Shown here piece by piece: positions 15,938-59,460 of a DNA stretch of 64,000 nt. Source of the DNA: Octopus sinensis (lineage: Eukaryota); the NCBI RefSeq assembly GCF_006345805.1, contig NC_043018.1, positions 3,534,001-3,598,000 of the forward strand. The letters are read 5' to 3'. The stretch's first letter is position 1. Each line of letters begins with the position of its first letter. Under the pieces are notes generated by a model. That model had not been told where the DNA came from. It did no database searches and saw only the letters and a program-made list of their open reading frames with translations. The position numbers were made by a program, and so were the translations under genes.

Positions 15938-15975
15938 TCTTTTACGTTTCGTGCTTACGCTCTTCAACAGAAAGA
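15938..15975 (-). ncRNA. Minimal hammerhead-like motif, U6 variant, in a short (TA)n-flanked repeat (15840-16040)
   Basis: Minus strand tcttt-CTGTTGA-a-gagc gtaa gcac-GAAAC-GTA-aaaga; second copy at 47750-47784. Confidence 0.5.
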
Positions 15976-16112
15976 TACACAAAAAAAAACACGGAGAGAA
16001 ACAAGGAGAGAAAAAAAATGCGTGCAGGAGCTAACGAATCAACATATATATATATAATATATATATATAATATATATATATATATATATATATATATATA
16101 TATATATATATA

Positions 16113-17280
16113 TCTTATTATAAAAGGCAGATTTTATCTGCCTCCCTTTGTAAGTTATAGAAATCTACAATATAGGATTTCTTCAATTACAATTTACCTA
16201 GCATTTTTAGAGTAGAATGCATCGGGTCATGCCAGGTCCAGTTTTTAAAATTTAAACTCCAATTAAGCAAAATTTACAGAAAACTCACATTCTGGTGTGT
16301 ATGTCAAATGCTTTTCTTAGTCTGGTTTACAGCACACGCAAACGCACACACACAGTGTGCAACGAATAAAGTGAAACTAGATGTAATATTTGTTTCTGTC
16401 TATCACGCTGATAGATACATGAGTAAAATGTATGGGAAGCTAACAGATAAGAGTGAGTGAAAATGTTCTTGGAAGAGAGTAAATTAGCGACAGAGTGATT
16501 TGAGGAAGACTAAACTGAAAGTATGAAACAGTGTTTATGTATAAACAGACGACACTTATATAAACCCTTTCGTTACCAAACCGCCCGATTTACCTATTCA
16601 TATTTAAATGAGAATATCAGAGTAAATCTCTTTAGTACATTCGTGAAAACACGTATTATACTTCGTAAACACTTCAAATACAGTTTTGTACAAAAATCGA
16701 AGTGTAATTTTAATTCCGTGAATTATGGGAGATTTTTTTCCGAAATTTGTTCCTATTGTGTTTTCAAAATTTGTAATTCTGACAAAAAATGGATACGAAT
16801 TTCATTATATCAAGCAGCGAGTCAGAATTCGAAGGATTTTCTACTGAAGACCTTCATAAATCTAACTCTATGACTGAAAAAAAAAAGCATCTTTATATAA
16901 GAGTGAAGTTGTGTGTCTGTCCCCTTCGATTTAGATTCGTAACTACTCCCACATTTTGCGGTGCAGTTTAACCAAAAGCGGGTATCTTATAGTCGTGATT
17001 CATATCGAGCCCTTCTGGGTATTAGCGCGCGTCTACGATGAGTCTACGATTTTAAAAAAATTACCATCATATTTTTCCATTTTAATGCATTTTTTTCGCT
17101 TTTATATAAGGGAAGTAACTCTCTAAAAATATCTACGATGTGTCAACGATTTAAAAAAAAATTTACCTTAATTTTTTTCAATTTTTTATGCATTTTTTTG
17201 CTATTTTTGGCTATAACTCTCTAAAAATGCTTATATAGTTATTTCCCTTACAACCTGAGCAACGCCGGCGATACTGCTAG
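16113..17280 (+). mobile_element. Non-autonomous Helitron (composite, second TC 5' end at 16890)
   Basis: 5' TC..ATAAAAG starts at 16113 and 16890; 3' GC-rich hairpin remnant cctgagcaacgccgg then CTAG at 17277-17280; A|T insertion site. Confidence 0.75.
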
Positions 17281-17630
17281 TATATATATATATATATATA
17301 TTATATATATATATATATATATAATATATATATATATATATATTTATTTATATATATATATAAATATGTATGTATATACGTATGTATTTATTTGTATATA
17401 TATAGGAATATGTTTACGTTATATGTATACATACATACATAAATGGGTCAATAAAATAAGTACCATTTGAATCTGGAGTCGATGCAAATGGTTTATCCCC
17501 TTCCCCGAAATTACAGGCCTTGTACTAAAATTATTATTATTATTATTATCATTATTATCATTATTATTATTATTATTATTATATTATTATTATTATTATT
17601 ATTATTATTATTATTATTATTATTATTATT

Positions 17631-17725
17631 GCGAGAGCAGGGCAGTACATGCCATCAAGGTGACACTGGGGTAAAATATACGAAACCCAGTATACTCATC
17701 ATGACTAGGAGTCTGATACGATCCA
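17631..17725 (-). mobile_element. Terminal fragment of family X with its (TAA)n tract (17530-17630)
   Basis: Reverse complement of 60545-60630. Confidence 0.8.
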
Positions 17726-17728
17726 GAG

Positions 17729-57118: not shown

Positions 57119-57292
57119 TATGTATGTATGTACGTATGTATGTATGTATGTATGTATGTATGTATGTATGTATGTATGTATGTATGTATGTATGTATTTA
57201 TATATATATATATATGTGTGTGTGTGTGTGTATATACATATATATATATATATATATATATATATATATATATATGTATATATGAGTGTGTG

Positions 57293-57545
57293 TGTGGAGG
57301 CGTAATGGCCCAGTGGTTAGGGCAGCGGAATCGCGGTCGTAGGATCAAAGTTTCGATTCCCAGACCGGGTGTTGTGAGTGTTTATTGAGCGAAAACACCT
57401 AAAAAGCTCCACGGGGGTCCGGCAGGGTTGGTGGCGATCCCTGCTGAACTCTTTCGCCACAACTATCTCTCACTCTTTCTTCTGTTGGCCTGACAGCGTT
57501 GTGTAGCAACATCTGCTGGCCTGGTCGGTCACGTGATCACGTGAT
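57293..57545 (+). mobile_element. tRNA-derived SINE-D with RTE-type 3' tail
   Basis: tggcccagtggttaggg (A box), gtttcgattccc (B box); ends ctggtcggtcacgtgatcacgtgat. Confidence 0.85.
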
Positions 57546-57557
57546 ATATATATATAT

Positions 57558-58605
57558 CCTTGCTTCACTCCCTTCTCGACCGGCACTCGTATGGGTGATG
57601 ACAGTAGAGCTATGTCGGTGGCATCCGGAATTTGCCTCTCTGAGCAGCTGCACATATTGCGCTTCGATTCCTTGCCTCTGTAGCGTGTTCAGCACTGCGT
57701 TGGTTTCGACGCTATCGAAGGCCTTCTCATAATCTATAAACAATCTCCCCAAAACTTTTCACTGCATGTCTCGAACAGATCATCAGAGGCATCGACTGGC
57801 AAGGTGGTGTCAACATCAATGGCGAGCTCTTCACTCACCTCGCTGACGACATCGTACTCATCGCTGAAAACATGGATCAGCTTCAGACCATGCTGACGGA
57901 GCTCGACATCAAAAGTTCTGCAGTAGGTCTCAAGATGAACCGCAAGAAAACAAAGTTCATGCGGTCAGACCAACAGGTCGAATGGTGATCGGCAGTGATG
58001 AAATAGAGGAGGTGAGGGAATATGTCTACCTGGGACAGGAAGTAAATATGTGCCGGGATATCAAATAGGAGATCTCATGGAGAGTAAGCGCTGGATGGAA
58101 GGCGTTCAATGGCATAAGGGATGTGCTCAAGGGAAGGTTGGACAGGACCACCCGCGCCAACCTCATTAACAGTGCAGTTCTGCCTGCAATGTTATATGGT
58201 GGTGAAACATGAGCTACCACAAAGAGAGAAGAGCAAAGACTGGTAACGGCTCAAAGAGCCATGAAAAGGTCAATGCTTGGTATCTCGTTGAGAGAGCACA
58301 TAAGTAGCAAGATCATCAGAAAGAAGTCCGTCGTGAGAGATGTCATCGCAGAGTATACACGCAGCAAGTATAGATGGGCTGGACACGTCGCCCGGCTCAC
58401 CGATAATCAGTGGACGCACGCAATTGTCGAGTGGTACCCGCGTGAGCGGGAAAGACCACCCGGAAGACCTCCACAACGGTGGTGTTACGATTGGAATCAC
58501 GTGGATGAGAAAGGCGCGATCCAGAGAGGTGTGGACAGCGTGCTGTGACCAGCGGTGTCAAATGGACGCCTGACGGACTGGTCGGTCAAGGTGATCAAGG
58601 TGATA
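57558..58605 (+). mobile_element. 5'-truncated, 5'-inverted RTE-clade LINE
   Basis: Minus 57558-57742: LFIDYEKAFDSV..VEKGVKQG; plus 57740-58605: TISPK, ADDIVL, YVYLGQ, LPAMLYGGET, RWAGHVAR, GRPPQRW; tail (caaggtgat)2. Confidence 0.93.
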
Positions 58606-58635
58606 TATATATATATATATATATAATAATTATTA

Positions 58636-59460
58636 TTTGAGGGAATATAAATCCAAACTTACAGGGGAAAAAAATTCAATTTAGAAATACTAAATCAAAT
58701 TTCACACAATATAATATATATATGTAACAAAATTAGAAAAAAACACCTTTTGTCAATTCAAAATGAACAATTAAATGACACCATCTAGAAAATTACATAT
58801 AATAGAAATATTGAAATTAAAATAACAATAAAATATCAATGATTAAGTAAACTGCAAAAAAAATAATAAAAACGTATATAATTGGTAGAATAACGACACG
58901 TGTTTCGTGGCTATATTTAAGAAATGATTATAACAGTAGTAAAATCACTTCGATATAAATATAGCCACTCATCAGGTTAAAAATAAACTAAAATAATAAA
59001 ATAATTAATTAATAAATATACTTTAACATATATATATATGTGTGTGTGTGTGTGTGTGTGTGTGTGTGTGTGTGTGTGTGTGTGTGTGTGTGTGTGTGTG
59101 TGTGCGTGTGTGTAAATACTAAATATACATAAGTGAAAACTAAAACAATACTTATATTATTAAATATTTTAAAATTAATTAAAATACACAATGCTAGTAC
59201 AAGTCATTAAATTGTAATCAAAATAAGAAATGGTTCAAATATAGATAAACTCATTAAATAAGCTAACTATATGATTAATATACATGTGTAGTATCTATAG
59301 ATTTAATATATCAATCAATAACATAGTTAGCTAAATATCAAATAATATAATACCTAATTAACTTAAAATTTAATATTACATAATAAATATGCCACCTAAT
59401 AATTAAATAATATATTGTCTAACGAAATTAGTTCTCAAATTAATTAAATGTAATACGTTA
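58636..59460 (-). mobile_element. AT-rich hammerhead-bearing element, same family as 28423-29352
   Basis: Shared stem II base gtggctatatt and shared 3' segment; (TA)n flanks; upstream boundary uncertain. Confidence 0.65.
58891..58979 (-). ncRNA. Type-I hammerhead ribozyme with long stem II
   Basis: taac-CTGATGA-gtggctatattta...taaatatagccac-GAAAC-acgt-GTC-gtta. Confidence 0.85.

Follow-up and report, generated by a model that had tools for sequence, protein, structure and literature searches.

A 64,000-nucleotide stretch of the Octopus sinensis chromosomes (G000:C22:3534001-3598000, hereafter the window), from a microsatellite-rich host genome of 2.72 Gb, carries ten motifs with the shape of minimal hammerhead ribozymes, and the question is what kind of element has brought them there. 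The original prediction assigned them to at least six non-coding families mobilised in trans. This assignment is not supported by the present analysis: the ten sites belong to eight repeat families, seven of which represent 3' ends of Penelope-like elements (PLEs) that code for proteins, and for family F alone no coding partner was found. It is very probable that the nine motifs in the 3' pseudo-LTR (pseudo-long terminal repeat, pLTR) ends of these seven families are residues of reverse transcription that stopped early at a nicked target, and that the tenth, in a 565-bp non-coding tandem unit, uses the same enzymes.

All ten motifs are present at the predicted positions and strands. They are assigned to family A (15938 and 47750), family B (27982 and 28351), family C (28644), family C2 (58891), family D (36438), family E (37042), family F (37573), and family G (39184). 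The segments that bear them, with the tRNA-like module of family B, are as follows.

15825..16035, minus strand: family A (subfamily CUGUUGA), from the 3' end of a PLE of Neptune type; 15970-15943 runs from the core to the base of predicted cleavage, with A6U and a stem II mismatch; coding link in locus L153
27887..28075, minus strand: family B, the inverted one of two head-to-head bodies; core 28021-27986, canonical CUGAUGA with an extra A, helix III ACGU
28165..28241, plus strand: tRNA-like module of family B, matching the A box and the B box, between the (ATT)n and (AAT)n tracts of the two halves
28301..28417, plus strand: family B body, direct half; hammerhead at 28355 with a stem II deletion; ends at the family C insertion
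28411..29364, plus strand: family C, from the 3' end of a PLE of Hydra type, with its core at 28647-28753, a long stem II, and the palindrome ACGCGCGU
36400..36553, minus strand: family D, from the 3' end of a PLE of Hydra type, with its core at 36519-36442 and the palindrome ACAAUUGU
36919..37139, plus strand: family E, from the 3' end of a PLE of Neptune type, with a core of the U3-A8 kind at 37045-37076 and the palindrome ACCGGU
37374..38040, minus strand: family F, a non-coding repeat with a unit of 565 bp, present in 1.2 units and bounded by (TA)n tracts; its hammerhead, at 37628-37573, is damaged and has a 3-bp hairpin as helix III
39088..39458, minus strand: family G, the pseudo-LTR of a PLE of Hydra type; its hammerhead, at 39229-39185, is damaged, with a 4-bp helix III and U.U at the stem II base
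47694..47831, minus strand: family A, subfamily CUGUAGA; core 47780-47753, A6U, helix III ACGU, terminates in (TA)n
58632..59013, minus strand: family C2 (the sister of C), from the 3' end of a PLE of Hydra type, with its core at 58975-58895 and the palindrome ACACGUGU

The window copy of family C includes a short inverted piece (28411-28486) and an insertion of a short interspersed nuclear element (SINE) at about 28797-29173. A 3' tail fragment of family G without a hammerhead also lies at 24949-25023 on the minus strand.

The motifs were compared with shuffled sequence by means of a descriptor, comprising the core boxes, a stem II of at least 4 bp, a helix III that is a palindrome or a hairpin, H17 other than G, and a stem I of at least 3 bp. 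Because it was drawn up post hoc on the window and admits two variant cores, an independent test was made on random stretches of the genome, sampled as 100 evenly placed 10-kb pieces (999,600 bases). The strict descriptor is passed by six of the ten sites, namely 27986-28021 (-), 28647-28753 (+), 36442-36519 (-), 37045-37076 (+), 47753-47780 (-), and 58895-58975 (-). Block-wise dinucleotide shuffles of the window give a mean of 0.07 matches and a maximum of 1 in 100 runs, and no match in 196 of a further 200 runs. The window run tolerated a helix III of 2 nt, which added five matches from one weak satellite, while the sample run demanded a longer helix III and gave 23 matches, against 0 to 4 in 20 shuffles. 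When the descriptor is applied stepwise (stem II, plus helix III, plus stem I), the real sequence yields 124, 59, and 22 matches, respectively, against 60-89, 8-18, and 0-3 in eight shuffles. The comparison with shuffled controls that had been proposed along with the original prediction thus speaks for non-random motifs, in the window and in the random sample alike.

The four sites that fail the descriptor do so for identifiable reasons: 15938 has a mismatch in stem II; 28351 has a deletion in stem II, and this copy is also split by the family C insertion; 37573 has altered bases at the junction of stem II and the GAAA box; and 39184 has a GAAA box with two additional A. For each family, other copies in the genome were collected as the best matches to the queries, with no random draw (24 loci each for A and B, 19 each for C, C2, D, E, F, and G), from searches that returned 612-3373 first-look candidates per family, figures that do not represent copy numbers. 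Intact cores are found among these top-ranked copies in 20 of 24 loci for A, 15 of 24 for B, and all 19 for both F and G, and in just 8 of 19 for C. The four failing sites in the window are therefore damaged copies of families that have intact cores elsewhere in the genome.

The minimal type I core (CUGANGA or its U3-A8 variant, GAAA..UH, and paired stems I and II) is seen at five window sites, and in families F and G at the family level. Most of the cores are CUGANGA as predicted, except for those of family A (CUGUNGA) and of the site at 37042 (UUGAAAA, the U3-A8 swap). Helix III was expected to be mostly a bare palindrome, which holds for A, B, C, C2, D, and E, but F and G have a true hairpin instead. 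The stems are unrelated in sequence across the eight families, yet they are paired in all of them, as had been claimed. For example, the sister families C and C2 differ by compensatory changes, in the palindrome (ACGCGCGU versus ACACGUGU) and in stem I (GAC/GUC versus AAC/GUU). Single-strand folding mostly recovers stems I and II and does not recover the active core, which is expected for minimal motifs.

A search of the whole window with Rfam places no hammerhead family among the best 150 of 322 matches, which are microsatellite-like microRNA models, and local scans, including one of 27800-28900, report no hammerhead family either. Four further CUGANGA boxes, at 9997, 35782, 41984, and 61846, belong to no motif family found in the loci examined. 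Another repeat family, overlooked in the original prediction, is present at 62886-63020 on the plus strand (boxes at 62928-62955), with CUGAAGA, a 5-bp stem II, and GAAA; its helices I and III are off the canonical register and a G occupies the would-be cleavage position (1791 first-look candidates, five loci inspected).

In the 999,600 random bases, the motif-bearing segments amount to 14 of family A, 15 of B, 5 of C and C2 together, 2 of E, one each of D and F, and none of G. This corresponds to about 38 segments per Mb, relative to which the window is roughly four times denser, and extrapolates to a genome total in the order of 100,000. The random sample also contained motif families that are absent from the window. 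Further hammerhead families, which differ in their stems and in their palindromes or hairpins, occur elsewhere in the genome, some of them directly behind GIY-YIG frames (L155:5600-5750, L156/L157, L200, L213, L234, L290, and L321).

The prediction that the motifs are tied to PLEs is borne out by the surroundings of their other copies, since frames of reverse transcriptase (RT) and of an endonuclease (EN) of the GIY-YIG type adjoin copies of seven families. These families, which account for nine of the sites, are the 3' pseudo-LTR ends of coding PLEs. A GIY-YIG frame in the same sense lies within 1.5 kb upstream in 10 of 19 loci of family C, 4 of 19 of D, 3 of 19 of E, and 2 of 24 of A, and in none of the 24 loci of B or of the 19 each of F, G, and C2. 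Whole units that begin with an inverted pLTR and continue with RT, GIY-YIG, and a second pLTR are found for C (L159), D (L151), and C2 (L375), the last reading inverted C2, RT thumb, EN, 2.5 kb, C2. The order RT, EN, untranslated region (UTR), motif is seen for A (L153) and E (L228), and family G stands directly ahead of a Hydra-type reading frame in L164 and inverted next to the same EN family in L154. Altogether, the arrangement of an RT, then a GIY-YIG domain, and the motif within the 3' repeat is present in L153, L159, L151, L164, L228, L282, and L375, all of which are decayed copies. For family B, the link comes from a search with its EN frame: 29 of the 30 loci obtained continue into the tRNA-like module, 26 of the 30 have the hammerhead body downstream, and a Penelope-type RT lies further upstream of the EN frame. 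The nearest named protein homologues of the family B frame are from the genus Octopus. Within the window itself no PLE reading frame is detected by tblastn with natural PLE queries at E<0.01, in agreement with the original prediction.

Clades were assigned from the diagnostic motifs of PMC8557442, without an RT tree (this paper, like PMC4209133, PMC7229834, PMC6765202, PMC13282606, and the preprint 10.64898/2026.07.22.740005, is cited for the parts of it that were covered). DKT is present in C and G, CxCX5C in C, C2, D, and G, and CX4CxxC in A and E, while B has DKG and no linker finger. By these motifs, C, C2, D, and G are classed as Hydra-type, A and E as Neptune-type, and B as Penelope/Poseidon-type; the initial labels, Neptune for C, D, and G and Poseidon for A and E, were dropped after these diagnostics were checked. 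A (TA)4 run lies within 420 nt downstream in 16-19 of 19 loci in C, D, E, F, and G, and in 20 of 24 in A, but in only 3 of 24 in B, so that the predicted location of the motifs mostly in (TA)n applies to six families and not to B. Family B alone lacks the linker finger, and it is also the family that lies outside (TA)n, which agrees with the association reported between the linker finger and (TA)n targeting (PMC8557442). An inverted motif segment is present in 11 of 24 loci of B, 5 of 19 of G, 4 of 19 of D, 3 of 19 of E, 2 of 19 each of C and C2, and none of 24 of A. Two motifs in the same sense are found in 0-3 of the 19-24 loci per family, with 0-1 independent loci each in A-E, C2, and G.

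PLEs insert by target-primed reverse transcription, and their copies are frequently 5' truncated and inverted. From this biology, a course of events may be proposed in which the GIY-YIG endonuclease of the element would nick the target, which would be (TA)n for the Hydra- and Neptune-type families and ordinary sites for the Penelope/Poseidon-type family B. The RT would then copy the RNA from about 40-300 nt beyond the predicted cleavage site, and would usually drop off or switch strand. The hammerhead would trim tandem precursors to RNA of unit length, presumably cleaving as a dimer where helix III is a palindrome only (A-E and C2), whereas F and G might cleave as monomers. Because an inverted pair places its two motifs on opposite strands, the isolated and inverted copies in the window are likely inert; for example, the motifs at 27982 and 28351 are on opposite strands and can form no dimer within one transcript.

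Several observations weigh against reading the short copies as truncated ends of coding PLEs. The coding links of G, C2, and A consist of one or two loci each, every coding copy found has stops or frameshifts, no active source element was found, and the Pfam scores of the frames are under the curated cut-offs except for the family B RT. One locus holds a tandem array of eight family A units. Moreover, the 5' ends cluster upstream of the GAAA box, at 66-87 nt in 19 of 24 loci of A, 114-169 nt in 12 of 19 of E, and 181-236 nt in 10 of 19 of D; this clustering is partly a bias of query length, and it suggests that the short forms copy on their own account. The short copies might accordingly be non-autonomous masters, solo pseudo-LTRs or retrozymes with their own promoter that are mobilised in trans, rather than products of truncation. 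Such masters would account for the 5' pile-ups in A, B, D, and E, for the family A array, for the wholly non-coding family F (every one of its 20 loci spans the unit junction, and 14 of 20 direct halves are longer than a unit), and for the absence of any family B reading frame match among the 999,600 random bases, which contain 15 family B body segments; animal retrozymes derived from PLE pLTRs have also been described (10.64898/2026.07.22.740005). We nevertheless consider this explanation unlikely, because there is colinearity between the short copies and the 3' ends of coding elements, a considerable part of the C, D, and E loci passes smoothly into the EN frame, and same-sense tandem motifs are rare. 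Being colinear with coding PLEs, families A-E, C2, and G are also outside the definition of a non-LTR retrozyme, which is non-coding and tandem. The two readings are compatible rather than exclusive.

It is far less probable still that the motifs are chance matches or dead relics that were not ribozymes at any stage. Four of the ten window copies are damaged, family A is without the conserved A6, where the related change A6C lowers activity in Mg2+ (PMC3088659, PMC7151607), and minimal PLE hammerheads cleave poorly in vitro (PMC4209133). These facts have to be set against the strong surplus over shuffled sequence, the pairing of unrelated stems in all eight families, the compensatory changes between C and C2, and the occurrence of the motif at the same position in each element. 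Early-stopped reverse transcription of coding PLEs is retained as the best explanation for the seven families.

Family B deserves separate consideration, since its 3' UTR consists of the stop codon, about 60 nt, a 76-nt tRNA-like module (the head), (AAT)n, and a body of 185 nt in which the hammerhead lies. Of 30 head loci, 28 have the body after the head, and the A box is present in 28 and the B box in 26 of the 30. Compared with genuine tRNA genes of the genome, all four heads examined score at z 7.2-8.8 over shuffles (15 distinct genes), while Rfam and ARAGORN at default settings do not score the head as a tRNA. The sense strand of the body has no T4 run in 23 of 25 copies, and the window copies of six other families examined have 1-9. 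Among 39 halves that reach into the head, 24 extend to its start and 2 beyond -50, against 16 expected at the rate of loss within the head, a comparison in which paired halves are not independent. Most copies of family B begin at the module, and the short form has, like a tRNA-derived SINE, a tRNA-related head with A and B boxes at its 5' end; it lacks the independence of a SINE from its autonomous partner in all but a shared 3' tail, as the head is within the 3' UTR of the coding element in 29 of 30 EN loci.

From these features, it may tentatively be proposed that the module is an internal promoter for RNA polymerase III (Pol III), and that an RNA of roughly 300 nt (head, (AAT)n, and hammerhead) is copied in trans by the Penelope/Poseidon enzyme, as a SINE born in a PLE 3' UTR. 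The linkage of head and body, the two boxes, the tRNA likeness, the T4-free body, and the 5' ends that stop at the head start all speak for such a promoter. On the other hand, A, D, and E also pile up at their 5' ends and have no such module, where the head starts there is an imperfect palindrome of 12 bp that could alone halt the complementary DNA or fold it back, the standard tRNA tools miss the head, and an A-rich sense strand by itself lowers the number of T runs. In addition, three unstranded RNA-seq runs with the label of a related species, of which about 6% each was used, contain 7,043-10,209 family B reads without a pile-up of starts or ends, although such libraries have little power in this respect. 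In its fullest form the proposal, which we put somewhat below an even chance, is that an octopus Penelope/Poseidon element captured a tRNA-derived Pol III promoter that would now drive a 300-nt hammerhead SINE outnumbering its parent. This SINE would have been caught at birth, would be mobilised by a Penelope RT/GIY-YIG enzyme rather than by a long interspersed nuclear element, and would exist in tens of thousands of copies, whose frequent inverted pairs would give rise to double-stranded RNA. The literature searched yielded no description of a tRNA-like module located within the 3' UTR of a PLE. If the short form is indeed driven by Pol III, it would show a SINE arising within a Penelope element and using the enzyme of that element.

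Two other interpretations of family B were discarded. The idea of an independent tRNA-SINE fused to a hammerhead tail fails because its upstream flank is a Penelope GIY-YIG frame, and that of the head as a separate, R4/Dong-dependent SINE landing in (AAT)n fails because the body comes after the head in 28 of 30 loci. Elements that we take to be R4/Dong-like are repeatedly found in or beside the (AAT)n tract of family B (L058, L070, L166, L176, L190, L263, and L273), and the family B PLE thereby spreads a landing site for another retroelement. At L262:1200-2045, RNA reads on family B show A>G at 20-34 and T>C at 14-16 places, against 12 and 8 in the contig run; this excess could be A-to-I editing of inverted pairs, but is not taken as evidence of it.

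Family F is the one family for which the original prediction of a non-coding element stands. Its unit of 565 bp has no long frame and is arranged in tandem with circular permutation, crossing the unit junction as noted above. The 5' starts are scattered over the unit, while the ends of the direct halves fall on unit position 386 (11 of 20), 477 (5 of 20), or nearby (4 of 20). As the predicted cleavage site is unit position 183, the insertion ends are internal to the monomer, a pattern that would fit reverse transcription round a circle or along a multimer. Two same-sense motifs are present in 3 of 19 loci, and no coding partner was found in the 19 loci (upstream EN 0 of 19) or beside diverged relatives. 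By its sequence, family F answers to the definition of a non-LTR retrozyme, a non-coding tandem unit with one type I hammerhead each, and it likely borrows the enzymes of PLEs. It resembles the animal non-LTR retrozymes (PMC7229834; 10.64898/2026.07.22.740005) in these respects and in PLE-type insertion, and its length falls in the range reported for them, 51-972 bp. Unlike them, its arrays are short (at most about 2.3 units found), circularly permuted, and within (TA)n.

Family A differs from the other families in its core. Position 6 is U in 42 of 44 distinct matches, with A6 kept in two related copies, so that the A6 regarded as invariant in minimal hammerheads is lost. No published report of A6U in a hammerhead was found, in a literature search that did not cover PMC5785218. 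A covariation of N7 with H17, with which 36 of the 42 A6U matches agree, is not claimed, because the matches form two or three subfamilies and there are exceptions. The array of eight family A units (G000:C2483, L037:600-2300) is head-to-tail, mostly separated by (TA)n, and locally retrozyme-like. The other core variants have precedents: the U3-A8 swap of family E is described in PMC4209133, and U.U at the base of stem II, as in family G, is reported in PMC3088659.

The general pattern of hammerheads in PLE tails has already been described in animals, including one Octopus example (PMC4209133, PMC8557442). Cervera and de la Pena (2014, PMC4209133) reported truncated PLE ends that carry minimal hammerheads and number thousands per genome. 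The hammerheads of metazoan PLE pseudo-LTRs share with those of the octopus a short helix I, a long helix II, an extra base after A9, a palindromic helix III, and the U3-A8 variant, as well as the many sequence families per genome, the mostly single truncated copies, and the opposite-strand pairs 100-700 bp apart. The molluscs Lottia and Crassostrea are in their alignment; cephalopod terms were not found in the supplements of that paper, which were searched in part, nor was A6U found in the parts of it covered. The octopus is denser, with about 23 intact motifs per Mb in the random sample as compared with thousands per genome.

The C-terminal EN+ PLEs of Craig et al. (2021, PMC8557442) share the order of RT and GIY-YIG, the clade motifs, the targeting of (TA)n in combination with the linker finger, and inverted 5'-truncated halves. 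A hammerhead is recorded there for Hydra-1_Obim of Octopus bimaculoides (File S2), with stems that differ from those of all eight families, and no other C-terminal EN+ Octopus family was found in the part of the supplement covered. The preprint of Li, Clavereau and Pollet (2026, 10.64898/2026.07.22.740005), which derives animal retrozymes from PLE pLTRs, has no mollusc in its main text. A 2026 repeat annotation of O. vulgaris lists 31 recently active Penelope-like families, and ribozymes are unmentioned in the parts covered (PMC13282606). The schistosome repeats SM-alpha and Sj-alpha resemble family B in combining a Pol III-type promoter and a hammerhead in a short repeat (PMC6765202). They are tandem, however, and cleavage puts the promoter at their 3' end, whereas family B is dispersed, with a minimal hammerhead, inverted pairs, and a tRNA-like module inside the 3' UTR of a coding Penelope. 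The family F unit, the tRNA-like module of family B, and the A6U of family A were not found described in the literature, in a search that did not include Repbase and Dfam.

The known association of hammerheads with PLE pseudo-LTRs is thus extended to eight octopus families at high density. As palindrome-only, hairpin, U3-A8, and A6U forms are present in one genome, they constitute a natural panel on the role of the hammerhead in PLEs. Family A is very abundant despite its altered core base.

The remaining features of the window are three decayed elements, the first of which is presumably R4/Dong-like.

4031-5955, plus strand: R4/Dong-like element (our provisional label), decayed
18493-20170, plus strand: non-LTR RT, decayed (Pfam RVT_1)
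42814-43801, plus strand: mariner-type transposase, decayed (Pfam HTH_48 and Transposase_1)

In addition, SINE-like units of about 184-222 bp form a tandem run at 53646-54624.

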